64,000 nucleotides of DNA from a virus: the IMG/VR virus record IMGVR_UViG_3300049718_000055, positions 1-64,000 of that record. One strand, written 5' to 3'. The position numbers were made by a program, and so were the translations under genes. Under the pieces are notes generated by a model. It ran no database searches, was not told the DNA's origin, and was given only the letters and a program-made list of their open reading frames with translations. This document shows, one piece after another, positions 43,842 through 56,400 of this stretch; position 1 is the first letter of the stretch, and each line of letters opens with the position of its first letter.

Positions 43842-44627
43842 CTACGCATTGATGATGTAGGCCGCGGTTCCAACGGCACTATTCAAATAGCCGCTGGCCG
43901 TTGCGATAGCCTTGATTGTCTCGCTTCCATATACTCCGATAGCGCCCGTGTACAGAGTGGATGAAGTCGTCGGCGTGCTCCCATCGGTAGTGTAGTAAAT
44001 CACCGCCCCCGGCGTCGTGCAACTAATCGCCACCGACTGCACTGTTGTATAAGACCCCGCCGCCGGCAAGAACGTCGGCGTTGCTGCCGTTAATCCGATA
44101 GTGAACAATGCGGTCGCTACCGCGCTGGTGTTGAAACCCGTTGCCGTCGCTATCGCCTTAACTGTCTCAGTGGACGTAATGGTGATTGGGGCGCTGTACA
44201 AAGTTGAAGACGTGGTTGGTGTCGATCCGTCAGTGGTGTAATAAATGGACGCTCCCGGTGATGAGCAACTGATCGCCACCGCTTGTCCTGAAGCGTAATT
44301 TCCCGCTGACGGAGAAAACGATGGTGTGGCCGCAGGATTGAGTGCAGGTCCGCTGATTGCCGCCCCCGCCAGAGATGTAAGTGAATTGGTCAACGTCTGA
44401 TTCGCTCCGTTATACGCCGTGTGCTGTGATGCAATCCAAGAGGTCACCTGAGCGATACTGCTGTTGAATTGGATGATGAACTGAGAGGCGTCTAGGCCGT
44501 AGTTGCGGGTAGGCCCGAGCCATGTACTTACCCCGTCCGTAGTCGAGGAATGCACCCGTACAGTGATGTGACCGCTTGCTTGATCTACTTGAACACTGTC
44601 AACAATGATTGATGTGGTATTTGCCAC
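43842..44627 (-). CDS. Protein with two chitobiase/Fn3-associated Ig-like repeats
   Basis: 2 x ATP.F.P.AG.Y...V.IS...GA.IYYTTDGSTPTTSSTLY...I....T.KAIA. Confidence 0.85.
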   Translation of the reverse strand: MANTTSIIVDSVQVDQASGHITVRVHSSTTDGVSTWLGPTRNYGLDASQFIIQFNSSIAQVTSWIASQHTAYNGANQTLTNSLTSLAGAAISGPALNPAATPSFSPSAGNYASGQAVAISCSSPGASIYYTTDGSTPTTSSTLYSAPITITSTETVKAIATATGFNTSAVATALFTIGLTAATPTFLPAAGSYTTVQSVAISCTTPGAVIYYTTDGSTPTTSSTLYTGAIGVYGSETIKAIATASGYLNSAVGTAAYIINA

Positions 44628-44636
44628 TTCACCCTC

Positions 44637-45821
44637 CTAGAAAAATACACCCGCGGTCGGAGAACCCACTATCGGAGATCCGCCGCCTCCACTCAATGAC
44701 ACCTGCCCACCAGAGTTCGTCAACACCACCACAGCAACTATTTGGTTCCCATCAAAATTTACCTGAAGCCTATTTTGTGCAGTATCGCCAGAATACGGCC
44801 CCGAAAGAATGACAATTCGGCTTCCCTTTTTGACGCTGTAGTACCACACGTTCCCTACTTCAACGCTTCCCCCAGACCCGCTAACGGTTCCCAGGGAGGC
44901 TTGATAGGTGAACGTATACGGCGGAGTTGCTGAACTGATCGGATATGAGCCATTGAACCCCGCAGGGGATACTCCGGCAATCGTCATCGAACTTTGAGCC
45001 GTGAGCCCCGTGGCTACATAGGTAACCACCGTCACAAGGTTTCCCACACTGGAGATTGAATGGATTCCATACGAGGTAGGAAGGGAAAGGGTATCCGTCC
45101 TTCCGTACAAATAGGTTTTACTTCCATCGGCAAAAGTGAAGGGGCTGGCCGGAATGGTTACCGTCACGCTTCCGGCATTTGTTATTGCAGCCACTAGGAA
45201 ATAGGCGCTTCCAACCGAGCCGGACTGAGTGGGATAAACCTTGTCCCCAATCGCATAATTCAACCCTCCAAAAACACTTCCCCCTGTGACCACCCCGCCA
45301 GCCGCCGTAATCGCAGCCAAAGCCCCCGTGCCGCTTCCCGAAGTGGTCGTAGGCAGGTTGGAAGCATTGCTGTACCCAGAAGTTCCGCCAGCCCCCAGAG
45401 AAGACGAAGTGATTACCCCGCCCGAGATAGAGTTCGTTGTCAGCGGAATGATGTTGTTGGCGTTTGGGGGAGTTGACATAAGATCGTTCAACCAGGAGCT
45501 TTGCTGCTCCCTCTGTGAATTTGAATTTATCATCCGATACGTGTCGAGAGAGTTTCCGCTGTTTGCCTGAAGCTGCGGCTTCAAAGCGGCAGCACTGTAC
45601 GAAGTCTTCGCCGCCCCGCTCGTCAACGCATCACTATCCGAGGTCGGCGCCGCAACATTCTTGATATTATTGCCACCGAGGTTGAGATGATTGCTCAACT
45701 CGACTTCCCCATTATGACCGCCAAGAGTGTTCACGTTGTCAATCAGTTGGCTCATCAATTGGCTCTCTGGAAGAGACAGGGAGGAAAAGTTTATCTTTCC
45801 GAGTTTGGAAGACTTCGGCAT
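44637..45821 (-). CDS. Virion structural (tail-associated) protein
   Basis: G/S/T-rich; IKNVAAPTSDSDA motif. Confidence 0.6.
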   Translation of the reverse strand: MPKSSKLGKINFSSLSLPESQLMSQLIDNVNTLGGHNGEVELSNHLNLGGNNIKNVAAPTSDSDALTSGAAKTSYSAAALKPQLQANSGNSLDTYRMINSNSQREQQSSWLNDLMSTPPNANNIIPLTTNSISGGVITSSSLGAGGTSGYSNASNLPTTTSGSGTGALAAITAAGGVVTGGSVFGGLNYAIGDKVYPTQSGSVGSAYFLVAAITNAGSVTVTIPASPFTFADGSKTYLYGRTDTLSLPTSYGIHSISSVGNLVTVVTYVATGLTAQSSMTIAGVSPAGFNGSYPISSATPPYTFTYQASLGTVSGSGGSVEVGNVWYYSVKKGSRIVILSGPYSGDTAQNRLQVNFDGNQIVAVVVLTNSGGQVSLSGGGGSPIVGSPTAGVFF

Positions 45822-46075
45822 TATCCAGCTACCTCTACTAGTTTTCCGTGCTGTTCCCACGGCGTAACGACATCATCAGGAACAGGACCAAAACACCTTC
45901 CTTCGTTCTTGCATTCCGATATTCCCGATCTTGACATTCTAGAATCAGGTTTTCCGTGAAAGATATGACGCTTCCCGTCAGTCTTTGAAATCTTCGGAAT
46001 CCAATACTGTTCGCACCCCCAGCAGTATCCGTCAACCTGAAACCTTGGAAATTCGGATTGGATCGTCTCTGGCAT
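45821..46075 (-). CDS. Hypothetical protein
   Basis: TATACT-6nt-ATG; TAATG coupling. Confidence 0.5.
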   Translation of the reverse strand: MPETIQSEFPRFQVDGYCWGCEQYWIPKISKTDGKRHIFHGKPDSRMSRSGISECKNEGRCFGPVPDDVVTPWEQHGKLVEVAG

Positions 46076-46153
46076 GGAATCAGTATACCCCAATGTAGGC
46101 ATAAACAGAAAAGCCTCTTCCGAAGAAGAGGCCCGTCTGCGGATAGGGGAAGC

Positions 46154-46501
46154 CTAAGCCGGGGTTGTAAATTGCACTGCCACGCTTTGCGTGAGTTGGG
46201 CCGGCGGAACGACAGCGTTCGTGGTGATTGTGAACGCCTGAGTCCAGGTCGAAACCACGCCGTCATTATCAGTGACCGTGGCAGCAGCCGTTCCAGTGAC
46301 AGCGCCGGCCGAGGCCGCTACGCCGGTAACAGTGGCGGTCAAGCCGTCAGCATTGAGAACCACGGTCGCGGACGGGTCCGAGAACGTGTACGAGACGGCA
46401 GAGAGTACGCCGCCAGAGAGGGTGACGCCATCGGCCAAAAGGGGCTGAATGGACGCCTGCGAAGTTTGACCAACATTGAGGGTCAAAGCATTGTTTGCCA
46501 T
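46154..46501 (-). CDS. Ig-like domain protein
   Basis: LTLNVGQT...SDPSATV...VTGVAA; AGGAG SD. Confidence 0.7.
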   Translation of the reverse strand: MANNALTLNVGQTSQASIQPLLADGVTLSGGVLSAVSYTFSDPSATVVLNADGLTATVTGVAASAGAVTGTAAATVTDNDGVVSTWTQAFTITTNAVVPPAQLTQSVAVQFTTPA

Positions 46502-46728
46502 GGGTGAGTCTCCTGTGAAACGAACTTCGATTGAGTAGGTTGCGAGTTTGGGTTTGAGTTCACGGCGAATCTCTCTGAGCAACCGCTCAATCCGATGTCT
46601 TGCATAGAGCGTTGCCCATTGACATTCTAAAATTTCACGTAATTGTTCGAGTGGATTCTCCAAATGGTCCCTCCACCAATCTCTTAACTACACTATACCA
46701 CTACATTTTGAATCTGTGGTGAGCAATA

Positions 46729-46812
46729 TGGAGCGGGGGACGGGATTTGAACCCGCGTGTCTCTCGACGGCAGCTTGGAAGGCTGCTGACCTACCAGTTG
46801 GTCATCCCCCGC
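46729..46812 (-). tRNA. tRNA-Gly(TCC), long variable arm
   Basis: GCAGC-CTTCCAA-GCTGC; CCA encoded. Confidence 0.9.
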
Positions 46813-46817
46813 AAACT

Positions 46818-46891
46818 TGGTGCTCCCCGCAGAAATCGAATCCGCATTGGCCGATAATCGGTCGGCTTTCCTACCATTGGAAGAGAGGAGC
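46818..46891 (-). tRNA. tRNA-Ile(GAT), atypical loop
   Basis: GCCGA-CCGATTA-TCGGC; CCA. Confidence 0.8.
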
Positions 46892-46892
46892 A

Positions 46893-46966
46893 TGGGGCCG
46901 GGAGCGAGAATCGAACTCGCGCCTCATCCGTACCAGGGATGCAGTCTCCCACTAAAATATCCCGGC
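46893..46966 (-). tRNA. tRNA-Thr(GGT)
   Basis: CATCC-CTGGTAC-GGATG; CCA. Confidence 0.88.
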
Positions 46967-46972
46967 TCTACT

Positions 46973-47050
46973 TGGTGCGGATGGCAGGACTCGAACCTGC
47001 GGTAATTCTTCTTTGTAGGAGAAGCGGCGTCGCCACTGGCCCACATCCGC
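46973..47050 (-). tRNA. tRNA-Val(TAC)
   Basis: CTTCT-CCTACAA-AGAAG; CCA. Confidence 0.85.
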
Positions 47051-47055
47051 AAAAC

Positions 47056-47133
47056 TGGTACTCCCGGTTGGACTCGAACCAACATCAATCCACTTACGGA
47101 CACTCGCTTCGGAGGCGAGACCGATACGGGAGC
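47056..47133 (-). tRNA. tRNA-Arg(CCG), no canonical D-arm
   Basis: CTCGC-CTCCGAA-GCGAG; normal T-arm and acceptor stem. Confidence 0.8.
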
Positions 47134-47138
47134 ATAAC

Positions 47139-47215
47139 TGGGGCCGCTGGCCGGAATCGAACCGGCGTCATCCAACTACTCTTGCCGGTTTAGGAAACCG
47201 GAGAGATACAGCGGC
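47139..47215 (-). tRNA. tRNA-Arg(CCT), no canonical D-arm
   Basis: CCGGT-TTCCTAA-ACCGG. Confidence 0.8.
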
Positions 47216-47219
47216 AAAC

Positions 47220-47296
47220 TGGCGCTCCCGGCAGGAGTCGAACCCGCGTCATCCGTCTACGGCCTCCTGTTTAGAAGACAGTGCCGATACGGGAGC
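47220..47296 (-). tRNA. tRNA-Arg(TCT), no canonical D-arm
   Basis: CTGT-CTTCTAA-ACAG. Confidence 0.8.
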
Positions 47297-47298
47297 AT

Positions 47299-47384
47299 TG
47301 GTGGAGCCGGTGGGACTCGAACCCACATTGGGTTACCCCGCTGATTAAAAGTCAGGTCTCTGCATCCAATTCGAGTACGACTCC
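47299..47384 (-). tRNA. tRNA-Lys(TTT), long variable arm
   Basis: CTGA-CTTTTAA-TCAG; V-arm GGGTAACCC. Confidence 0.88.
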
Positions 47385-47390
47385 GAAACT

Positions 47391-47465
47391 TGGTGGGTCG
47401 CCGGGGAATCGAACCCCGCTCTTTCGATTAAGAGTCGAGTGCATCGCCGACAATGCTTGCAACCC
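47391..47465 (-). tRNA. tRNA-Lys(CTT)
   Basis: TCGA-CTCTTAA-TCGA. Confidence 0.9.
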
Positions 47466-47468
47466 ACA

Positions 47469-47562
47469 TGGTAGGGGATGAAGGTGTCGAACCTTCCCGT
47501 TGCGCTAATCTGGCGCTCTCCAGAGTTTATAAGACTCCGCCGCACGGCCGATGCTATCCCCC
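47469..47562 (-). tRNA. tRNA with TAT anticodon (Ile), long variable arm
   Basis: GGAGT-CTTATAA-ACTCT; 94 nt. Confidence 0.8.
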
Positions 47563-47568
47563 AAAACT

Positions 47569-47640
47569 TGGTGCCGCGCCTGAAAATCGAATTCAGCAAA
47601 CAGGGTTATGAATCCTGCGTTCTCTCCAGAGATGCGCGGC
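47569..47640 (-). tRNA. tRNA-Met/Ile2(CAT), short D-arm
   Basis: CAGGA-TTCATAA-CCCTG. Confidence 0.75.
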
Positions 47641-47641
47641 T

Positions 47642-47715
47642 TGGCAGGGGATACAGGACTCGAACCCGTAAATTCCGCTCTGGAGGCGGACGTTTTTCCA
47701 TTAGACTAATCCCCT
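47642..47715 (-). tRNA. tRNA-Trp(CCA)
   Basis: TCCGC-CTCCAGA-GCGGA. Confidence 0.92.
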
Positions 47716-47729
47716 ATGTCAAAGAGCAT

Positions 47730-47756
47730 AAAAAACCCGCTCCTGAGAGCGGGCCT
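47730..47756 (-). terminator. Attenuator terminator 3
   Basis: AGGCCCGCTC-TCAG-GAGCGGGTTTTTT. Confidence 0.85.
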
Positions 47757-47780
47757 GTCGCAACAAAAACGCAGCAGACC

Positions 47781-47852
47781 CTAAAACACGACTCCCCAAA
47801 TGACCCGCTTCCCGGTCATTCTGGTTATCACGTGTTTGGTCCTGATCTGCAT
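47781..47852 (-). CDS. Leader peptide 3, MQIRTKHVITRMTGKRVIWGVVF
   Basis: Lies between promoter and terminator; codons match the 12 downstream tRNAs. Confidence 0.8.
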   Translation of the reverse strand: MQIRTKHVITRMTGKRVIWGVVF

Positions 47853-47872
47853 GAATTCCCACCTGCAAGTAC

Positions 47873-47901
47873 AGCGTACATCAACTTTCCGTTTTGTGCA
47901 A
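47873..47901 (-). promoter_or_regulatory. Promoter of tRNA block 3
   Basis: TTGCAC-17bp-TACGCT. Confidence 0.65.
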
Positions 47902-47905
47902 CTGC

Positions 47906-49090
47906 TCAGTCCTTGTAAGGATCAAATTCACGGGCAGATGCCATAGCCACTCCGACCGGGGTCAACACGTGAAGAACTTTGATCGAATCTCCACACGCCG
48001 CAAGAACTCCGTCTAGCCGTTTGTAGCAGTCTGGAGATTCGTCTAACCCGGCGCCACGCAGTTCAATTCCGGCCTTCCTTACCCATCCATCCATCATCTC
48101 CTGAGTTACTCTTCCAGGGCGCTTGCACTCGCCTGTCTTGCGGTCGAAAGTCCCCTTCGCCTCCATGCGACCCATTGCACGGCCAGCGCCGTGAACGGTT
48201 GAGTAAAGGCTGTACTTGGCATCCTCGTTCTCCATGCCCTCCAAGATGACGGACTTCTCGCCCATCGTTCCTCCAACGAATCCCTTCTGTCCAGGGAACG
48301 CCGGAGTGGCTCCCTTGCGAACAACCCACAGCATCTCACCACCATGCTCTTCCCGCCATGCGAAGTTGTGATGGTTGTGAACCTCTTCAATAGCCTTAGC
48401 TCCAAGAATCTTAATCACGCGGTCGCAGACCCAGTTCCTTCCTGCATAAGCGTACTCGCCGGCAAGAGACATAGCCTGTAGATATTCGCTGCCTAGTGCG
48501 CTGTCTACCGACAAGACACATGGCTCCACATCCATTCCGTCTTTTGCTCCTGCTGCTTTCAAAAACCACGTTGCAATCTTATGCCCGAGGCCGCGAGAAC
48601 CGAAATGAACACCCACCCAAACGCGGTCTTCTTCGTCTGTAAAAAGATCTACATAATGGTTTCCAGAACCCAAAGTCCCAAGTTGCTGATGAGCCATTTC
48701 CTTGAGCGGGGAGGTCATTGAAAGACTCCAGGCATCATGCTCGAAAACCTGATCGTCTACACGCTCGTCGTCATTCTTTCTCCCAACCCCAAAACTGACT
48801 ATATTCCATACGTCATCCATTATCGGCTTGATGCTGCCACGCAACATCCAGCCTTCCATGTCGGTCAACACGGCCTTGTTTCCACAGCCGATGTCGTATC
48901 CCACTCCGGTTGGGCTGATGGAATTTCTATAAGCCACAACACCGCCAATGGGCACACCGTACCCAAGGTGGTTATCTGGCATCAATGCCACTTTGTCCGC
49001 GGTTTTCGCACAGGTCCGAATCTGGTTGAGAGTCTTTTCTTCAGCTTCCCCAAATACCGGTATAGTTCCATCTACTAACTGCATCCCCAT
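47906..49090 (-). CDS. rtcB: RNA 3'-phosphate/5'-OH ligase RtcB
   Basis: MPDNHLGYGVPIGG; VGYDIGCG; GTLGSGNHY; HFGSRG; HNHHN; RKGAT; HGAGR; DESP..YK. Confidence 0.96.
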   Translation of the reverse strand: MGMQLVDGTIPVFGEAEEKTLNQIRTCAKTADKVALMPDNHLGYGVPIGGVVAYRNSISPTGVGYDIGCGNKAVLTDMEGWMLRGSIKPIMDDVWNIVSFGVGRKNDDERVDDQVFEHDAWSLSMTSPLKEMAHQQLGTLGSGNHYVDLFTDEEDRVWVGVHFGSRGLGHKIATWFLKAAGAKDGMDVEPCVLSVDSALGSEYLQAMSLAGEYAYAGRNWVCDRVIKILGAKAIEEVHNHHNFAWREEHGGEMLWVVRKGATPAFPGQKGFVGGTMGEKSVILEGMENEDAKYSLYSTVHGAGRAMGRMEAKGTFDRKTGECKRPGRVTQEMMDGWVRKAGIELRGAGLDESPDCYKRLDGVLAACGDSIKVLHVLTPVGVAMASAREFDPYKD

Positions 49091-49105
49091 ACCCTCCTTT
49101 TTATT

Positions 49106-49180
49106 TGGTGAGCGCGGAGGGAATCGAACCCCCATCGTTGCGTTCGTAGCGCAGCACTCTATCCGTTGAGCTACGCGCCC
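49106..49180 (-). tRNA. tRNA-Arg(ACG)
   Basis: TGCG-CTACGAA-CGCA. Confidence 0.93.
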
Positions 49181-49191
49181 ACATTCAAACT

Positions 49192-49265
49192 TGGTCTCCG
49201 AGGGCGGACTCGAACCGCCGACACCGCGCCCCGAACGCGGGATGTTTCCACTACACTACTCAGAG
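49192..49265 (-). tRNA. tRNA-Pro(CGG)
   Basis: CCGCG-TTCGGGG-CGCGG. Confidence 0.92.
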
Positions 49266-49266
49266 A

Positions 49267-49340
49267 TGGTCAGCGAGGGGAGAATTGAACTCCCACCACA
49301 AGTTCCCAAGACTTGGATGCAACCATTACACCACTCACTG
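49267..49340 (-). tRNA. tRNA-Pro(TGG)
   Basis: CAAGT-CTTGGGA-ACTTG. Confidence 0.9.
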
Positions 49341-49348
49341 ATTAAAAG

Positions 49349-49517
49349 TTATGCGTGACGGAATCAAACCGTCTCCACCCGCTCCAATGCGGGAGTGCTA
49401 TCCGTCCAGAGTCGTGTCGATCTTGAGCCGCTACGTATCGCCCCAAAACGCATTCCACTGTACTGCCTTCGCTACGCTCCGTCGAGCTTCACTTTGGCTT
49501 CATTACACCAACGCATA
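49349..49517 (-). ncRNA. tRNA-like RNA with a ~95-nt insertion in the D-loop
   Basis: TATGCGT/ACGCATA acceptor stem, GTGT/GCAC D-stem, CCCGC-ATTGGA-GCGGG, T-arm GACGG-TTTGATT-CCGTC; no CCA. Confidence 0.65.
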
Positions 49518-49519
49518 CT

Positions 49520-49595
49520 TGGTGCCGACTACCCGTATCGAGCGGGTTTCCATCGCTCTTCAGGCGATTGCTATGACCTCATCAGCTAAGTCGGC
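49520..49595 (-). tRNA. tRNA-Phe(GAA)
   Basis: ATCGC-CTGAAGA-GCGAT. Confidence 0.9.
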
Positions 49596-49600
49596 AAAAC

Positions 49601-49676
49601 TGGTGGACCTAGAGGGGCTTGAGTCCTCGACCTCCCCGGTGCAAACGGGGTGCTACTCCATCTGAGCTATAGGCCC
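49601..49676 (-). tRNA. tRNA-Ala(TGC)
   Basis: CCCCG-TTTGCAC-CGGGG; G3:U70 present. Confidence 0.92.
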
Positions 49677-49684
49677 GTAAAACT

Positions 49685-49760
49685 TGGAGGGAAAGGTGGG
49701 AGTTGGACCCACTAGAACCTGTTCCACAGACAGGCGCCGCACCGTTTGGCTTCAGTCCCC
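49685..49760 (-). tRNA. tRNA-His(GTG), weak acceptor stem
   Basis: CCTGT-CTGTGGA-ACAGG. Confidence 0.78.
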
Positions 49761-49770
49761 ATAAAGCTGT

Positions 49771-49842
49771 TGGGGCCGGATGTGGGAATCTAACCCACCG
49801 CGCAGGCCGTACAAAGGGCTGCTGCTACTCAGAGCATCCGGC
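49771..49842 (-). tRNA. tRNA-Thr(TGT), atypical D-arm
   Basis: Loop TTTGTAC; perfect acceptor and T stems. Confidence 0.72.
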
Positions 49843-50391
49843 TCAGTTAAACGCATACCTCTTATCACCTTCGGAGTCCGTGAATAAAAACGGACCCCAC
49901 TCATTTACCTCGGCGCCGAGAGACCTCAACAAAAATCGCGGCGTGTGAATCGACTGCGGCAGCGGCCGGCGAAGCAACTTCATTCCAGCTTCCTCCGGCG
50001 TCCGGTCGGCCTTGCGGTGATTATCTTTGGCGCAACATGAAACCAAGTTGCTCCACGATGGCGATCCTCCTCTTGACTTTGGAATTATGTGGTCAAGAGT
50101 TAGTTCGCTAGTCTTGAACCTTTCTCCGCAATACATACACCTTTCTCCGTCACGAAGAAAAATGTTCTTGCGGCTTACAACTTGAAGCCTAATTGGGACG
50201 TGGCGATAAGCGCGAAGCCTGATTACCGATGGAGCATAGATTCCAAGTCCGCGATGGATAAGTACATCGGTAGGAACCTCAACCAGAGCAACACCTTTCG
50301 TAATAAGAGTCAGAGCCTTCTTAACTGAAACTATGCGAAGCGGCTCATACGATGCATTGAGAAGAAGTGTTGCGCTTTTTCCTATTGTCAT
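49843..50391 (-). CDS. HNH endonuclease
   Basis: LLLNASYEPL; SRKNIFLRDGERCMYCG; TLDHIIPKSRGG..SWSNLV.CC...N..K..RTPEEAGM. Confidence 0.93.
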   Translation of the reverse strand: MTIGKSATLLLNASYEPLRIVSVKKALTLITKGVALVEVPTDVLIHRGLGIYAPSVIRLRAYRHVPIRLQVVSRKNIFLRDGERCMYCGERFKTSELTLDHIIPKSRGGSPSWSNLVSCCAKDNHRKADRTPEEAGMKLLRRPLPQSIHTPRFLLRSLGAEVNEWGPFLFTDSEGDKRYAFN

Positions 50392-51163
50392 AGTCACCAC
50401 GCTCCCAACGTTCTTTCAGTAAAGCAGACATCTTCGCCTTAGTTTCTTCCTTGTGCTTCATACCTTTGTTTCCAGGTACTCTGCCTTTCCTGATTGCCGA
50501 CTGTTTAGCCCGTGTTTCTTCGGAAGCCTTTTTACCTGTCAGAGAGCGAGAAATCTTTGCTTTACTCTCTTCTGAAAGTTTCCTTCGTCTGTTCGCCGCA
50601 GAAATCTTCTCACTAAATCCCTGCGGTTTAGGTCTCCCCTTCAAAGCAGCAGATCGTTTTGCTTTTTCTTCCTCCGACATTGGGCCTAATTTCCGGCCCC
50701 TAAATGATGCCGACATACGCGCTTTGGTTTCTTCCGAACGCTTTGAACCAGTCCTAGATTTAATCATCTTGGCTATCGCCTCTGCTGTGTGTCTCAATCC
50801 CTTATGCACAGCAGATACTTTCGCTTTCATTTCGGCTGTTCTAACCGCTCCTGATCCTCCCTCGCCCCCATCTGTTCTATTTCTCAAGCATCCAGTTCCA
50901 AGGTTAATTCTCCCATGGAATTTTATTAGCTGCTTCTCCATGAAAAACGCTTCGTCCTCTGACAAATCTTTGGCAATAATTACAATCATCGATTTATCTT
51001 TTGGAGTACGTATCGCTTCAATAGGATTTTTCTTATAGGCTCTTAACCCGTGTCCTTTCCCTATGTAATAAGGAGAACCCGCTGGGCCGTGTTCGGAGGC
51101 AAAAGTCCTCACGTATTGGTATACGTAAAACCCAGAGATTACAGGTCTCCTATAGTTACTCAC
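50345..51163 (-). CDS. GIY-YIG endonuclease with NUMOD3 repeats
   Basis: FYVYQY...YYIGKG...R; LRNRTDGGEG; repeated SEETKAKMS. Start refined to GTG 51163. Confidence 0.88.
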   Translation of the reverse strand: MSNYRRPVISGFYVYQYVRTFASEHGPAGSPYYIGKGHGLRAYKKNPIEAIRTPKDKSMIVIIAKDLSEDEAFFMEKQLIKFHGRINLGTGCLRNRTDGGEGGSGAVRTAEMKAKVSAVHKGLRHTAEAIAKMIKSRTGSKRSEETKARMSASFRGRKLGPMSEEEKAKRSAALKGRPKPQGFSEKISAANRRRKLSEESKAKISRSLTGKKASEETRAKQSAIRKGRVPGNKGMKHKEETKAKMSALLKERWERGDYDNRKKRNTSSQCIV

Positions 51164-51187
51164 TGTCTTACTCTCTTTCCTTAAAAG

Positions 51188-51262
51188 TGGAGCCGGGTAG
51201 CGAAATCGAATCGCTGTCTGTGGGATACGAATCCACTGCTCTGCCATCTGAGCTAACCCGAC
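51188..51262 (-). tRNA. tRNA-Thr(CGT)
   Basis: GTGGA-TTCGTAT-CCCAC. Confidence 0.88.
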
Positions 51263-51345
51263 TATGTTTTTCTGCTAACCTCTTCCACACTTCTCGGAGA
51301 TCGGCATTCAAATGAAACCTGTGCGGCATGTCAACCTCCAAAATT

Positions 51346-51419
51346 TGGAGCGGTTTGCCGGATTTGAACCGGCGCTTTCGCCCTGGCAAGGCAACGTCTT
51401 ACCACTCGACTAAAACCGC
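51346..51419 (-). tRNA. tRNA-Gly(GCC)
   Basis: TTGCC-TTGCCAG-GGCGA. Confidence 0.9.
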
Positions 51420-51424
51420 TTCAC

Positions 51425-51498
51425 TGGCTCCGAGAGTAGGAGTCGAACCTACACAGCGAGCTTCAAAGACTCGCGGCCTACCGTTAACCGATCTCGGA
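51425..51498 (-). tRNA. tRNA-Gln(TTG)
   Basis: CGAGT-CTTTGAA-GCTCG. Confidence 0.92.
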
Positions 51499-51505
51499 TC
51501 AAACT

Positions 51506-51581
51506 TGGCTGGGAAGGCAAGTCTCGAACTTGCTACCTTCCGGGTCAGAGCCGGACGTTCTACCCGTTGAACTTCTTCCCA
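51506..51581 (-). tRNA. tRNA-Gln(CTG)
   Basis: TCCGG-CTCTGAC-CCGGA. Confidence 0.92.
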
Positions 51582-51590
51582 ACTTCAAAC

Positions 51591-51665
51591 TGGCTGTGCA
51601 GGTGGGAGTCGGACCCACATCCTCTCGCTTAACAGGCGAACGCTCGACCATTGAGCTACCGCACA
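51591..51665 (-). tRNA. tRNA-Asn(GTT)
   Basis: TCGC-CTGTTAA-GCGA. Confidence 0.9.
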
Positions 51666-51667
51666 TC

Positions 51668-51706
51668 AAAAAGCCCCTAACCGCTTATTCTCGGCTAGGG
51701 GCTTTT
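51668..51706 (-). terminator. Attenuator terminator 2
   Basis: AAAAGCCCCTAGCCG...CGGTTAGGGGCTTTTT. Confidence 0.85.
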
Positions 51707-51749
51707 CCTCATTTGCTACGTTGTAGCAGTTGAATCTTTGCGCCCAAGC

Positions 51750-51812
51750 CTACACGGGATTACCGAACGCTTGTGGCGTTGTCGGCTGTCCGGTATGGGC
51801 TCGGTTCATCAT
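51750..51812 (-). CDS. Leader peptide 2, MMNRAHTGQPTTPQAFGNPV
   Basis: Starts 7 nt after the -10 box; codons match the 12 downstream tRNAs. Confidence 0.8.
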   Translation of the reverse strand: MMNRAHTGQPTTPQAFGNPV

Positions 51813-51819
51813 GTTTCCT

Positions 51820-51848
51820 ACTTTACCGCCGTTCGCAATTTCTGTCAA
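51820..51848 (-). promoter_or_regulatory. Promoter of tRNA block 2
   Basis: TTGACA-17bp-TAAAGT. Confidence 0.8.
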
Positions 51849-51857
51849 ATCATTTTC

Positions 51858-51934
51858 TGGTAGGGTTGGTGGAACTCGAATCCACTAGGACATGATTGAA
51901 GGTCATGGTGCTCGTCCGCTTTGCATTCAACCCC
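51858..51934 (-). tRNA. tRNA-Glu(TTC)
   Basis: CATGA-CCTTCAA-TCATG. Confidence 0.8.
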
Positions 51935-51939
51935 ATAAC

Positions 51940-52016
51940 TGGCGCGGTAGACGGAAATCGAATCCGTGTACACGATCTTGAGAGAATCGCTGGAGAACCA
52001 GCACCCCTGCTACCGC
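51940..52016 (-). tRNA. tRNA-Glu(CTC)
   Basis: CGATT-CTCTCAA-GATCG. Confidence 0.8.
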
Positions 52017-52017
52017 A

Positions 52018-52092
52018 TGGCGGTCCCACGGGGAGTTGAACCCCGAACGCCTCTTAGACAGAGAGGAATCATTGCCGTTAGACCATGGGACC
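52018..52092 (-). tRNA. tRNA-Asp(GTC)
   Basis: CCTCT-CTGTCTA-AGAGG. Confidence 0.9.
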
Positions 52093-52095
52093 AAA

Positions 52096-52212
52096 AGTTC
52101 CGTTTTGTTTGCCTAGCGGCCCAGTCTCCCATCGCATTAGCAGAATTCCGACTGAGGTTCATCCACTGCGGACTCGAGTCCGTTTGCTAGACTCTTGCCA
52201 GAACGGTACTGG
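52096..52212 (-). ncRNA. Candidate structured ncRNA inside the tRNA array
   Basis: Terminal stem AGTaCCGTT/AACGGaACT; GTCTAGC/GCTAGGC; perfect palindrome CGGACTCGAGTCCG. Confidence 0.45.
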
Positions 52213-52221
52213 CCTTTGGAT

Positions 52222-52296
52222 TGGTTGCGTGGGGAGGACTCGAACCTCCGGTCTCCAGCTTATGAGGCTGGCGAGATGCCGCTTCTCTACCTCGCC
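52222..52296 (-). tRNA. tRNA-Met(CAT), initiator-like
   Basis: CCAGC-CTCATAA-GCTGG; 1:72 mismatch; GCAACCA end. Confidence 0.88.
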
Positions 52297-52301
52297 ATTT
52301 C

Positions 52302-52330
52302 AGTATGCCACTACTCTTTCATGTTGGCAA
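52302..52330 (-). promoter_or_regulatory. Promoter of the Met/Asp/Glu/Glu block (no attenuator)
   Basis: TTGCCA-17bp-CATACT; +1 falls near the tRNA-Met 5' end. Confidence 0.65.
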
Positions 52331-52333
52331 GTA

Positions 52334-52419
52334 TGGTGCATCGCCCCAGGCTCGAACTGGGCTGCTCCGAAGAGCGGCAGGTTTACAGTCTGCTGGCCGT
52401 CCACCCGACCATGCGATGC
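52334..52419 (-). tRNA. tRNA-Tyr(GTA)
   Basis: GCAGA-CTGTAAA-CCTGC; long V-arm. Confidence 0.88.
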
Positions 52420-52423
52420 AAAA

Positions 52424-52513
52424 TGGAGGAAGGTGGAGTAATCGAAACCCTACGCCATCGCTGACGCACCACGGTTTTCAGGACCGTTCGCCGACCATTC
52501 AGCGGCACCTTCC
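52424..52513 (-). tRNA. tRNA-Ser(TGA)
   Basis: ACGGT-CCTGAAA-ACCGT; long V-arm. Confidence 0.88.
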
Positions 52514-52517
52514 AAAC

Positions 52518-52605
52518 TGGCGGAGACGATCCGATTTGAACGGATGGAACCTTGCGGTTCGGAGGTTTAGCAAACCTCTGGATTAGACCGCTCTCCCACG
52601 TCTCC
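52518..52605 (-). tRNA. tRNA-Ser(GCT)
   Basis: GAGGT-TTGCTAA-ACCTC; long V-arm. Confidence 0.93.
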
Positions 52606-52610
52606 AAACT

Positions 52611-52686
52611 TGGTGCCGATGGTCGGGTACGAGCCGACAAGCCTGAAGGTTTGAGCTTCAGAGGTATTCCTTCCCATCACATCGGC
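52611..52686 (-). tRNA. tRNA-Leu(CAA), short variable loop
   Basis: TGAAG-CTCAAAC-CTTCA. Confidence 0.8.
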
Positions 52687-52691
52687 AAAAC

Positions 52692-52767
52692 TGGTGCGGG
52701 TGGAGGGACTCGAACCCCCATGAGACTGATCCTAAGTCAGCCGCGTATTCCATTCCGCCACACCCGC
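52692..52767 (-). tRNA. tRNA-Leu(TAG), short variable loop
   Basis: GCTGA-CTTAGGA-TCAGT. Confidence 0.88.
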
Positions 52768-52778
52768 ACATCTCAAAC

Positions 52779-52851
52779 TGGAGTACCGGGCCGGACTTTA
52801 ACCGGCTTCAACGGTTTTGCAGACCGTCCGCTCGCCCTTCGCTTCCGGTAC
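52779..52851 (-). tRNA. tRNA-Cys(GCA)
   Basis: ACGGT-CTGCAAA-ACCGT; U73. Confidence 0.85.
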
Positions 52852-52852
52852 A

Positions 52853-52930
52853 TGGTGCGGGTGAACGGTGTCGAACCGATCCTAAACTGGGCTTAAACCA
52901 GTTGCCTCTTCCAACGTGGGCTACACCCGC
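52853..52930 (-). tRNA. tRNA-Leu(TAA), short variable loop
   Basis: ACTGG-TTTAAGC-CCAGT. Confidence 0.88.
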
Positions 52931-52931
52931 A

Positions 52932-52967
52932 CAAAACAAAGCCGCCGATCTCTTCGACCGGCGGCTC
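52932..52967 (-). terminator. Attenuator terminator 1
   Basis: GAGCCGCCGGTC-GAAGA-GATCGGCGGCTT-TGTTTTG. Confidence 0.85.
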
Positions 52968-52992
52968 GTGAATTCCAAACTTTGGAATCAGT

Positions 52993-53058
52993 TCACATAA
53001 GCCCCCGGCCCGTCAATGGCAGGCAATACGAGGATAGCGAACTGAGTAAAATTCTCAT
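52993..53058 (-). CDS. Leader peptide 1, MRILLSSLSSYCLPLTGRGLM
   Basis: Leaderless start; contains all six Leu codons plus Ser, Tyr and Cys codons, matching the 7 downstream tRNAs. Confidence 0.8.
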   Translation of the reverse strand: MRILLSSLSSYCLPLTGRGLM

Positions 53059-53064
53059 ATCCAA

Positions 53065-53093
53065 ATCTTCCCACAGATAATCATTATTGTCAA
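53065..53093 (-). promoter_or_regulatory. Promoter of tRNA block 1
   Basis: TTGACA-17bp-GAAGAT-6nt-ATG. Confidence 0.7.
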
Positions 53094-53156
53094 TCGGTCA
53101 TTCCGGTACAGTTAAATTCCCCTCTTCGTCCTCCAATTGAGGCTGAGGTGTACACC

Positions 53157-53372
53157 ATGCCACTAAGTTTGTTTTGGATCATCGCCGTTGTAATCATTGC
53201 CGGAGTAGTTCTTTGGGCTCTAAACTCGTTCCCTGCCATTGACCCCACCATGAAGCAGATCGCCAGAGTGCTTATCATCGTGCTCGTGGTTATCATGGTT
53301 CTCTACTTCCTGTTTGGATTGCTTGCAGGTGGTGGTGCGGGATTCCATAGCTTCCCCGGTCCTTGCCGCTAA
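53157..53372 (+). CDS. Small two-TM membrane protein
   Basis: IIAGVVLWALN..P.IDP.MKQI..VLIIV; GAGGTG SD. Confidence 0.8.
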   Translation: MPLSLFWIIAVVIIAGVVLWALNSFPAIDPTMKQIARVLIIVLVVIMVLYFLFGLLAGGGAGFHSFPGPCR

Positions 53373-53384
53373 TCTTGCCGGCAC

Positions 53385-53414
53385 AAAAAAGCGGCAGACC
53401 CGAAAGCCTGCCGC
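53385..53414 (-). terminator. Intrinsic terminator insulating the tRNA array from upstream transcription
   Basis: GCGGCAGGCTTTCGGGTCTGCCGC-TTTTTT. Confidence 0.85.
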
Positions 53415-53482
53415 ATTCCCCATGATTTGATCTGCGTTGTTATGAATAAACTCTACATCCGGTCGTAGAAGTTGTCAACCGC

Positions 53483-56400
53483 TCATGGCTCCACAAACAA
53501 TACTTTCTCGTAGCCTCTCCCTTGGCACTGGACCTTGTACCACAAATTAGAATCAGGCCAAAGAATAAAGTCCTCCGTACTTGTTCCGACCATTCTCAGT
53601 GTACGGAACGAGATTGCCGGTAGTCGGGTCCGCAATGGATTGCGAAAGCCGCCAGCTTGCGGCATTACAAATGTGAATCCAGCCGTTGGATTATCGTCGT
53701 AGAACACGTTGACAATGATCGGCGCACCCGCTGAGTAAATCCAGAAAACGTCGCGCGCAAATTTGGAAGATGCCTCCGAAATATTGATCTTGTAAGTGTC
53801 GAACGTCTTCCTCGTCCTCGGCAGTACCAGAGCCTCTACAGCGGCTTGGTACAGGTACGCGAACGTGGACAGATTCCCGACGATCTGGAGACTGATTTTG
53901 TAGGCTTGCTGGCCGAGTCCGTTGAGCAACGGCAGGTTGATCTTGCCGCGAGTCGAGTTGCTGATCGTTCCGAGTGGGACCGTGATTGCGCCGTCATTAA
54001 ACAAGGCGTTGACGGTCAAGGTCTGCCCCCCGAGGTTGCAGTCAACCACAATCGCGTTGTACTGTTTCTGGTTTGCCGGCGAGCTTTGGAATGAGTAAGC
54101 AGTCTGGAGATTGATTGCAATCGGCCCCGCGGCCAGTACGCCCCCGCTTGATACTTGATCGTAGGGAAGGTTTTGCCGGTCAATGTGTACGAGCCCGTTT
54201 GAATCGCCGTAGAGCAACTGATTCGTATCGGCCTCAAGCATCAAGCATTGCGCGTCAACGTCATCATTCCTGAATCGCTTGTACTGAGCGTGGTATACCA
54301 ACCGATGCCGGTTTCCGTCCGTACCGATGTAACTGAAAAATACCATTGAGTTCCAGTACGAAGCCACCGTCTGCGACAACTTCGTTTGGTCCGCTTCGAC
54401 AATCGGAGTGGAACCTACGCCCTGGAAAAGGAACTCAACCTGGAGACTCATGTACACCGACTCCCCACCAGTAAAAGCACGTAGACCATCTGCGGCTTGG
54501 TAGGCAATCATCTCTTCGGTCGCCACGTACCCAAATGGCGCCACACAACCATGCGCACAAGACGTGGGATATGGTGCCTGTTTTGCCGGACTGTCCGGTG
54601 GAACCATCCACCATCCGCTTTTGATACAACTGACCATGATATTTCCCTTGAAAGGCACCACGGCCGTAATGTAATCATCCGGCGTAGAGATGATGATGTT
54701 GTTCGCTTCACCCACGTACTGCGGAGCGTTTCCGGTGCTGAAGTAAAGCGTTGACGGGTTGTTCGGATCTCCCCAATACCATGCCTTGTTGAAAGCTATG
54801 ACCATGCCGTAGACCGGCTGGCCTACCTTAATACTCGCCTGGACCTGCTCTCCAGCCGCATGATAATTCTGGACAAAGGCAGTGAAAGAACTCACTCCGA
54901 CTGTCAATACCACTACGGTTTCAAAGTTGTTTGCTTGAGCCGTTGGATTCCCCAACAAGACTTGCTGGCGCACTGAGATGTTCGCCATGCTTGCCGGGTT
55001 TATCGTCACTACAGAGCCCACCGGAATATCTGGCAGCGTGTAATAGATCGTGACCACTAGATTGTTGACATAGACGGTTGCCGCTGATGATCCTAAGTTG
55101 TCTCCGCCTACAAGCGTCTGAGTAAAATCAGCATTGACGATTGCAGGAGTAATCGTAGTGCCCCACAAATTTCCACTTCCACCAAAGACATAAGTCTGCG
55201 GAGCTAGTGTCAAGGAAATCTCTGCCGGAAGGGCGGCTCCGGGAATATTTATACTTGCGGTCATCTTAGGACCGAGCACGCTCGTATAAGCATCAAAGCT
55301 GACTTTAATTCCGGTGATGGTCGCGGTTAAGGGGATGCTCGGAAGACTGAAGTCTCCCTGCAAGGCCCCAATCCCTTGCGAAGCAGGTGCCGACACGGAC
55401 GTATAAAGTGATGAAGATGTAGCGTTGGTTGGATTTACCCAAGTAGACCCGACCGGATTCGATCCTGTGATTGACGGAGAAACCTGTAATGTTCCTACAA
55501 TAGCAGCGTTCAGTGTAGTATTCACCGGAACCGGAAGAAGACTCGGAACCGGAACATCGTTCGTAAACGAAACCATATCCGCTCCGGCTATCAGGTAGTC
55601 CGGTGCCGTGTCGGTATACTGGACTATCCCCCCGCCCTCTATGCTGATCGGGATTTCGTCTATTCGCCTGAAGTTATCTCCGTAGGTTCCCCCTCTTCTA
55701 TAGATTCTCAGATACCCGATCTGACCATCCTGCAACTGTCCTGCGGGTCCGTAAGTCTTAGTGTTGATTTTTAACAACACCGGCTGGCGCCGCGGGTAGA
55801 CCCAGTTCGTATGGTTAGGCGGGTTCTGATTCGTCATTATCGGAGATGGATTCGATTCCGTTCCATCCACGTCATTTAAGAACGTCGCAACATAGTCATA
55901 GGCTACTCCACCAAGAGTATCTGGACCTGCCCCTCCAAACAGTACCAGAGAAGAAAGTTTAATCGTCGAGCTTGAGTTGTCATTCATCACAATCGTGATC
56001 TGATAGCCGTTGACGTTTGACCAGTTGTAGACCGCATCTTTATAGTCCGCCATCCCTGCTCCAGAAAAATCTGACAACTGGAAGAGAAGCGGCGTCCAGA
56101 TATTTTTCCCTGTATCCAGTTCTCCGATAGACCCGGCTCCATTTCCGTAAAGGCTGAGACTATCCTCAAGAACAGCTTCCGTTAGAAGAGTAGTTACGCT
56201 ACTTGTCCCAGAGGCAGAAGATGTTGCTAAAGTAGTCAACTCCTGCAAAGGTCCTTGGGAAATTACTTTATAGAAATAGTCGCTCTCGAATGATCCGTCT
56301 CCGCAATCAAAACTTAGCGTTATGCTCTGGATTTGCGTTTGGTCGCTGACAAACATATAGAGACCAATGTAATCAGATTGGTTGTCGGATACAGTCTCGC

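Follow-up and report, generated by a model that had tools for sequence, protein, structure and literature searches.

What determines when a phage transcribes its own tRNA genes? Such genes are usually explained as compensation for codon usage or as spares against tRNA-cleaving host defences, and to our knowledge their regulation is largely unknown. The question is posed by an uncultured peat phage, for which we analysed positions 1-64,000 of the IMG/VR record IMGVR_UViG_3300049718_000055 (the window). The full virus record is 88.6 kb long with a completeness of 91% (CheckV), and the metagenome runs that contain the window come mostly from peat, bog and freshwater. Approximately 35 tRNA genes form an island on the minus strand (52930-46729). 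At its head lie seven tRNA genes (block 1, 52930-52334), preceded by a promoter, a 21-codon open reading frame (ORF) and a hairpin, which we refer to as cassette 1; two sister cassettes are found further into the island. Sequence comparison and RNA folding models make it likely that cassette 1 is a trp-type, ribosome-mediated leader-peptide attenuator, with the supply of the tRNAs under its control as the signal. The sequence elements, the match between codons and anticodons, and helices that exclude one another and are conserved despite sequence change are directly supported here, while the transcription start, the translation of the leader, the efficiency of termination and the physiological trigger are what we infer.

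The promoter of cassette 1 (53065-53093, minus strand, like all cassette features), read from the sequence, has the hexamers TTGACA (53093-53088) and GAAGAT (53070-53065), separated by 17 nt. After a gap of 6 nt it is followed by the ATG of the leader ORF (52993-53058), which comprises 21 codons and TGA and translates to MRILLSSLSSYCLPLTGRGLM followed by the stop. Homologues of the cassette are present in three IMG/VR contigs (L093, G001 and L092) and in the cultured Tunturiibacter phage Tunturi_5, and the layout TTGACR, N17, xAxGAT, 6 nt, ATG recurs in the three contigs. Because this short gap between promoter and ATG is conserved, the mRNA is probably leaderless, given the presumed transcription start. 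Like the leader of an attenuator, the ORF is short, with its start and stop codons close to that position.

The regulatory part of the leader is a run of Leu, Ser, Tyr and Cys (L/S/Y/C) codons at positions 4-13 (53049-53020), with an additional Leu codon at position 15 (53016-53014). An earlier reading of the letters alone, made by a model that ran no database searches (the sequence-only reading), had quoted the leader for 53058-52993, and the quotation matches exactly. Its counts also hold: 12 of the 20 codons after the start are L/S/Y/C codons, including the run of ten that we recounted at codons 4-13, and each of the six Leu codons (TTA, CTC, CTA, CTG, TTG, CTT) is present exactly once. For six Leu codons under the codon usage of the phage, the probability that all differ is P = 0.0077. 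The tRNAs that it had listed downstream, in the order Leu, Cys, Leu, Leu, Ser, Ser and Tyr, are borne out by ARAGORN, Rfam and cloverleaf folds. They are tRNA-Leu-UAA (52930-52853), tRNA-Cys-GCA (52851-52782), tRNA-Leu-UAG (52767-52692), tRNA-Leu-CAA (52686-52611), tRNA-Ser-GCU (52605-52518), tRNA-Ser-UGA (52513-52428) and tRNA-Tyr-GUA (52419-52334), all on the minus strand. ARAGORN with default settings recovers five of the seven; Cys-GCA and Ser-UGA were called from matches to the Rfam tRNA model and clean cloverleaf folds.

The codon match was assessed under standard wobble rules, against 200,000 random 20-codon windows taken from the long ORFs of the phage. The leader contains a cognate codon for each of the seven block 1 tRNAs, which is the case for 0.08% of the random windows (p ~8e-4), and the other two frames of the leader DNA cover only 4/7 and 3/7. 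The regulatory codons correspond to the regulated product, as they do in attenuators, and this correspondence is specific to the frame. The match put forward in the sequence-only reading stands for all seven tRNAs, but the codons CTC, CTT and TCC match at the level of the amino acid only, unless U34 reads four bases. When 69 short ORFs lying upstream of tRNAs (12 loci) were ranked blind, these codon-matched leaders came out at the top.

How could translation of this leader act on transcription? The RNA of cassette 1 can form three helices that are mutually exclusive: a protector (segments 1:2), an antiterminator (2:3) and a terminator (3:4). In the minimum free energy (MFE) fold of the full leader, segment 1 (53020-53045), the 5' strand of the protector, lies within the L/S run and pairs with 53012-52988. 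The complete leader folds into a long hairpin, in which the L/S codons and the 3' end of the leader form the protector, followed by the terminator (z = -3.9). The protector is present in the MFE folds of the window, L093, G001 and L092. The intrinsic terminator (52931-52967) has a 12-bp stem and a 5-nt loop, followed by the U-rich UGUUUUGU. Its hairpin (52967-52939; 12 pairs, 8 of them G-C, then TGTTTTGT) has a predicted energy of about -20 kcal/mol on its own and is the strongest in a local hairpin scan. The terminator ends 1 nt before tRNA-Leu, placing it between the leader and the genes.

Once the 3' arm of the terminator is omitted, the MFE fold is the antiterminator (52956-53010). This agrees with the earlier proposal of a long helix between the 3' part of the leader and the terminator 5' arm. 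One strand comprises the final five codons together with the stop (GGCCGG.GGGCUU..GUGA), the other is the 5' arm of the terminator (UUCAC.GAGCC.GCCGGUC), and the palindrome TTCCAAAGTTTGGAA (52988-52972) forms the apex. In silico, this helix excludes the terminator, and its 5' strand lies under a ribosome positioned at the stop codon.

The effect of the ribosome was modelled by masking its footprint at each codon and scoring the pairing of the terminator 5' arm at the point where the 3' arm would emerge (truncated transcript). In the window, the arm is paired at 0.84-0.90 with codons 2-13 in the A site, at 0.61 with codon 14 and at 0.42-0.45 from codon 15 to the stop. Over the window, L093, G001, L092 and Tunturi_5, the pairing is 0.81-0.90 up to the end of the run and 0.34-0.62 beyond it. 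In folds that include the complete terminator, stalling at codons 5-8 of the window leaves a terminator probability of 0.03 or less, and stalling at codons 6-13 of G001 leaves less than 0.1. Dinucleotide shuffles of the upstream strand match the sequestration observed in the window in 4% of trials (p = 0.04), with p = 0.017-0.043 for each of the window, L093, G001 and L092. The sequence-only reading had claimed that a ribosome at the stop would disrupt the antiterminator and one stalled in the L/S/Y/C run would not. The in-silico folds of the window and the four homologues agree; under the footprint constraints that it had named as a check, the terminator arm is freed only past the run.

The antiterminator apex contains a palindrome, TCCAAA-N-TTTGGA, that is present in 15 copies in the window against 0.25 expected. 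The copy at the apex (52974-52986) is kept in L092 and L093, and is not found in G001 and Tunturi_5. A TTGACA between tRNA-Gly(GCC) and tRNA-Thr(CGU) has another copy (51337-51349) 2 nt upstream. The motif looks like the binding site of a DNA-binding regulator, which could constitute a second layer of control.

The two sister cassettes are built in the same way. Cassette 2 (51662-51848) consists of a promoter, the leader MMNRAHTGQPTTPQAFGNPV with its stop, an antiterminator that starts in the stop codon, and a terminator. It precedes tRNAs for Asn, Gln (two), Gly, Thr (two), His, Ala, Phe and Pro (two) as well as Arg-ACG. Two homing endonuclease genes and RtcB also lie behind it; the proteins encoded inside the island are a GIY-YIG/NUMOD3 homing endonuclease, an HNH homing endonuclease and the RNA ligase RtcB. 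Cassette 3 (47724-47901) has the leader MQIRTKHVITRMTGKRVIWGVVF with its stop, an antiterminator right after the stop codon, and a terminator, and precedes tRNAs for Trp, Ile (two), Lys (two), Arg (three) and Val, a tRNA with the anticodon CAU, Thr-GGU and Gly-UCC. Both leaders cover 12/12 tRNAs of their own block, which none of the 200,000 random windows achieves, and they cover few tRNAs of the other blocks. The Arg, Gly and Thr tRNAs are split between blocks 2 and 3, and the codons fit the leader's own block in 8/8 cases in leader 3 and 4/6 in leader 2. The isoacceptor codons are CAG, CAA, ACG, ACA, CCG, CCA and CGA in leader 2, and AGA, AGG, CGG, GGG/GGA, ACC and ATA in leader 3.

Is this arrangement maintained between phages? 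G001 stands for the loci L084 and L004, L092 is the same phage as L103, and Tunturi_5 is PP885688.1 (loci L108 and L001). L093 is near-identical to the window, with TCA (Ser) in place of CCA (Pro), so that its run is 12/12. Tunturi_5, a cultured jumbo phage, contains homologues of all three cassettes: that of cassette 1 is unannotated (L108 36157-36316), and of the further two (L001 4457-4640 and 16807-17040) the second leader is unannotated and the third is annotated as the hypothetical gp308. In all cassette 1 homologues, the promoter-ATG spacing is the same or the start is comparable, the L/S/Y/C run comprises 11-15 codons, and the terminator abuts tRNA-Leu. The start codon, the stop codon and the open frame are kept in all of them, and the ORFs of the window and G001 differ in length through a single in-frame indel of 3 nt.

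Three of the four homologues have diverged in sequence, yet give the same profile over the ribosome positions. Their helix arms are built from unrelated sequences: GGCCGG.GGGCUU pairs with GAGCC.GCCGGUC in the window, UUCAGAGGC with GCCUCUGAA in G001, GGGAGGC with a GCCUCCC-type complement in L092, and GGUUGGG.CUU with AAG.CCCCAGCC in Tunturi_5. When the five terminators were aligned with MAFFT and folded with RNAalifold, the result was out of register, and individual folds were used instead.

The leaders also follow the tRNA content of each phage. For all 12 leaders of the window, L092, G001 and Tunturi_5, coverage is 86-100% for the own block and 0-50% for other blocks. In Tunturi_5, the Asp, Glu, Val-GAC and Arg-ACG tRNAs have been relocated to the third block, and its D/E/V/R-rich leader, gp308, covers 14/14; the second block holds three Ala and three Thr tRNAs, with a leader coverage of 13/13. 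In two distant loci, L016 and L008, a tRNA-Trp lies within the Ser/Tyr/Leu/Cys block and TGG is present in the matching leader. A second leader of L016 (P, Q, A, T, K, V, D, N, R, E, G) is followed by a terminator and stands ahead of a block of 23 tRNAs. The homologues of the cassette 2 leader contain the same set of amino acids with the order of residues shuffled, which indicates that codon content, rather than the peptide, is under selection. A scan of IMG/VR by exact motif for further homologues of cassette 1 returned only L093, G001 and a chance match in a coding region (L098). One metagenome scan with a neighbouring protein returned only L103, which is the L092 phage, or contigs without a tRNA array beside that gene.

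These features suggest the following mechanism. Transcription would begin at or next to the AUG of the leader, and a ribosome would read the 21 codons during transcription of the following 60 nt. Fast decoding of the Leu, Ser, Tyr and Cys codons would bring the ribosome to the last codons and the UGA, where it covers the antiterminator's 5' strand. This would allow the terminator hairpin to form, and transcription would halt before tRNA-Leu. Scarcity of any tRNA that reads codons 4-15 would stall the ribosome in the run. With segment 1 covered by the stalled ribosome, segment 2 would be available for pairing with the 5' arm of the terminator, and with this arm sequestered the polymerase would read on into the tRNA genes of block 1. 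The phage tRNAs made in this way would speed up translation of the leader and close the gate, constituting a negative feedback on tRNA supply.

Several observations weigh against such an attenuator or limit it. The ribosome-free equilibrium fold of the truncated window transcript already favours the antiterminator (0.85), so the off state must depend on kinetics or translation. The equilibrium folds of cassettes 2 and 3 of the window with the full terminator show no switch, which is seen in the folds of their truncated transcripts. A stall at codons 2-3 would open the gate as well, making the specificity imperfect. CTC, CTT and TCC are unreadable by the phage tRNAs under standard wobble, the block contains no tRNA for 7 of the 20 leader codons (R, I, P, T, G, R, G), and Tyr and Cys are represented by one codon each, giving low sensitivity to a graded shortage. 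The -10 hexamer GAAGAT is weak, below detection in a consensus scan. The S/L/C/Y/W leaders of the distant L008 and L016 are codon-matched, but have no terminator and end 21-23 nt before the first tRNA, indicating that an intrinsic terminator is not required everywhere. RNA data were available as contigs from three metatranscriptome runs and one run of unknown kind over 46600-53500. Contigs from these libraries that are 100% identical to the window span several block 1 tRNAs, as weak evidence, but none covers the leader, and such contigs cannot show RNA ends.

What would the switch respond to? It is possible, though we hold this only tentatively, that the three cassettes provide a codon-resolved surveillance circuit for the loss of host tRNAs, for instance to defences that deplete them, such as anticodon nucleases. 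Each leader would poll 7-12 tRNA species by single codons. When a species is lost, replacement tRNAs would be transcribed, together with the RNA repair ligase RtcB behind cassette 2. Polling by single codons suits an all-or-none loss better than graded starvation.

The same RNA switch could instead respond to amino-acid starvation, that is, to uncharged tRNA, and tie tRNA transcription to the charging of host Leu, Ser, Tyr and Cys tRNAs. In the trp, his and leu attenuators, stalling is an established readout of aminoacyl-tRNA supply, and it cannot alone separate absent from uncharged tRNA. The evidence from helices and folds fits equally well. However, additional tRNA gives no relief of an amino-acid shortage, and the match extends to the anticodon: each of the two Gln, two Pro and three Arg isoacceptors has its codon in the leader of its own block. 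The leaders track tRNA gene content across phages, and the presence of RtcB in the island behind cassette 2 points to loss or damage of tRNA. We regard starvation as an unlikely signal and tentatively favour tRNA loss because of the anticodon-level match and RtcB.

A second alternative retains the translated, codon-matched leader, with control exerted by something other than the intrinsic terminator. The hairpin would then be an ordinary insulator, and the ribosome would act by blocking Rho-dependent termination when stalled, or by protecting or processing the tRNA precursor. The terminator-less leaders of L008 and L016 argue for this: the leader of L008 is C-rich (36% C, 20% G) and weakly structured, like a Rho loading site, and that of L016 contains 29% C. 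These leaders, together with the second leader of L016, lie at L008 339-452 and L016 3893-3979 and 4859-4990, and the two without a terminator suggest that a Rho-type variant may exist. In the window and the four homologues, however, the antiterminator overlaps the end of the leader or its stop as well as the terminator 5' arm, and the helices are rebuilt from different sequences each time, which would be needless for an unrelated insulator. For cassette 1 itself we consider control outside the terminator improbable.

That the ORF is a chance frame beside a constitutive terminator, or encodes a small functional peptide without regulatory role, would fit its small size, the missing Shine-Dalgarno sequence, the weak -10 box and the RNA-library contigs, none of which covers it, but is strongly disfavoured by the coverage statistics, the frame specificity, the three cassettes in the window, the own-block pattern in four phages, the shuffled residue order and the in-frame indel, and we give it very little credence. 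Equally far-fetched is a T-box-like, ribosome-independent riboregulator whose leader RNA binds tRNAs by codon-anticodon pairing: the leader codons do complement the downstream anticodons and an antiterminator/terminator pair is present as in T-boxes, but there is no Stem I and no T-box motif, 7-14 specifiers in one leader would be unprecedented, and the frame-specific match and the start, stop and open frame kept in all homologues point to translation. A cmscan search of 44000-56000 at E up to 1 gave no match to a T-box or another cis-regulatory Rfam family and none at the leader; it returned tRNA-type matches and a few weak, sub-threshold ones to models of small RNAs, small nucleolar RNAs and plastid untranslated regions.

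Is there a precedent for the proposed ribosome-mediated attenuator? In the literature searched, we found no published leader-peptide or attenuation control of tRNA genes or phage tRNA arrays. Enterobacterial leaders respond to a single amino acid (trpL, hisL, leuL, pheL) or to several, such as thrL (Thr, Ile), ilvL of ilvGMEDA (Ile, Leu, Val) and ivbL. Cassette 1 resembles them in its short, presumably translated leader with regulatory codons, in the exclusive 1:2, 2:3 and 3:4 helices and in the ribosome at the stop that would block the antiterminator, the phage cassette being known in silico. In the models, it shows every testable structural feature of the trp, his, thr and ilv attenuators. 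It differs in scope, as the regulated genes are seven tRNAs and not biosynthesis enzymes or a synthetase, and in being phage-borne with a probably leaderless mRNA. Enterobacterial leaders contain tandem runs of a codon, whereas the phage leader is a panel of 4 amino acids for 7 tRNAs (up to 9 and 14 in sister and related cassettes), with varied synonymous codons, mostly in single copies.

Control of a decoding component by the translation rate of its own codons is known from the Escherichia coli pheST attenuator with its pheM leader. There, a synthetase and one amino acid are concerned, in contrast to the tRNAs here. An attenuator-like leader of the E. coli tRNA-Phe genes, considered as a further candidate, was dropped, as K-12 pheV has only a promoter. 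T-box riboswitches bind tRNA directly through one specifier codon, independently of the ribosome. They share with the phage leader the sensing of tRNA status and the choice between terminator and antiterminator; the phage leader gives no T-box match in Rfam. The model of ribosome-mediated attenuation is described in PMC1183508 and PMC3082878.

The nearest published biology that we found is the trn L-array of Anabaena sp. PCC 7120, with 26 tRNA genes that are silent until translation is impaired and are co-regulated with rtcB (PMC8421152). Its repressor is TrcR (PMC10272220), a ribbon-helix-helix protein that binds direct repeats spanning both the -10 box and the start of transcription (PMC8421152, PMC10272220). 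As proposed here, accessory tRNAs are switched on when translation falters, and RtcB is associated. In contrast to the phage cassettes, the array is controlled by a promoter repressor, which is not codon-specific and involves no leader peptide. The TrcR repeat motif, taken from PMC8421152, is absent from the window with up to one mismatch allowed. In E. coli, stalls at various positions of the upstream ORF toiL (topAI-yjhQ) are reported to relieve premature termination (PMC12121999). This system differs in being Rho-dependent and antibiotic-sensing and in controlling a toxin-antitoxin operon (PMC12121999).

If the attenuator is real, these phages gauge decoding speed codon by codon and make tRNAs on demand with negative feedback, and classical attenuation extends from metabolism to the decoding apparatus. 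The signature of a leader whose codon set equals a tRNA block could predict operon structure in tRNA arrays, and the leaders would offer compact sensors for the supply of individual tRNAs. Since all three cassettes have homologues in Tunturi_5, the idea is directly testable in a cultured phage-host pair.

The extent of the unit under cassette 1 is indicated by the next promoter (TTGCCA, N17, TG-CATACT; 52302-52330, minus strand), which lies directly after block 1, 5 nt before tRNA-Met, and is kept in L092 and L093. It also precedes the lone tRNA-Met of the related phages L100 and L104, which have no array. Given this conserved promoter, the unit under the control of cassette 1 alone would be the seven tRNAs. 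The Met, Asp, Glu-CUC and Glu-UUC tRNAs seem to be expressed without a leader, as suggested by the same promoter and its presence in array-less phages. Between tRNA-Met and tRNA-Asp lies a structured 129-nt spacer (52093-52221, minus strand), a putative element that is spanned by an RNA-library contig identical to the window (X10, 52077-52283).

Many tRNAs of the island (46729-52930, minus strand) are atypical. The three Leu tRNAs are just 76-78 nt long, without a long variable arm, and three tandem Arg tRNAs (47057-47298) have an unusual fold and are not detected by ARAGORN. Ile-UAU has 94 nt, Lys-UUU 86 nt and Gly-UCC 84 nt. At lowered thresholds ARAGORN misassigned atypical tRNAs, and Rfam matches and cloverleaf folds were used instead. 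An element of 175-179 nt between tRNA-Phe and tRNA-Pro (49341-49519, minus strand) has ends that correspond to a tRNA-like acceptor stem and T arm. It is missing from L092 and G001, and a contig of run X5 joins 49341 to 49517, skipping it. An interrupted tRNA is one possible identity of the element, a small mobile insertion another.

Upstream of cassette 1, a region on the minus strand (53391-53478) contains a consensus-like promoter (TTGACA, N17, TAGAGT) with a strong hairpin and T-tract (53414-53391) within 40 nt. This hairpin also closes a candidate convergent ORF on the plus strand (~53150-53370), read by eye, which would encode a small hydrophobic protein.

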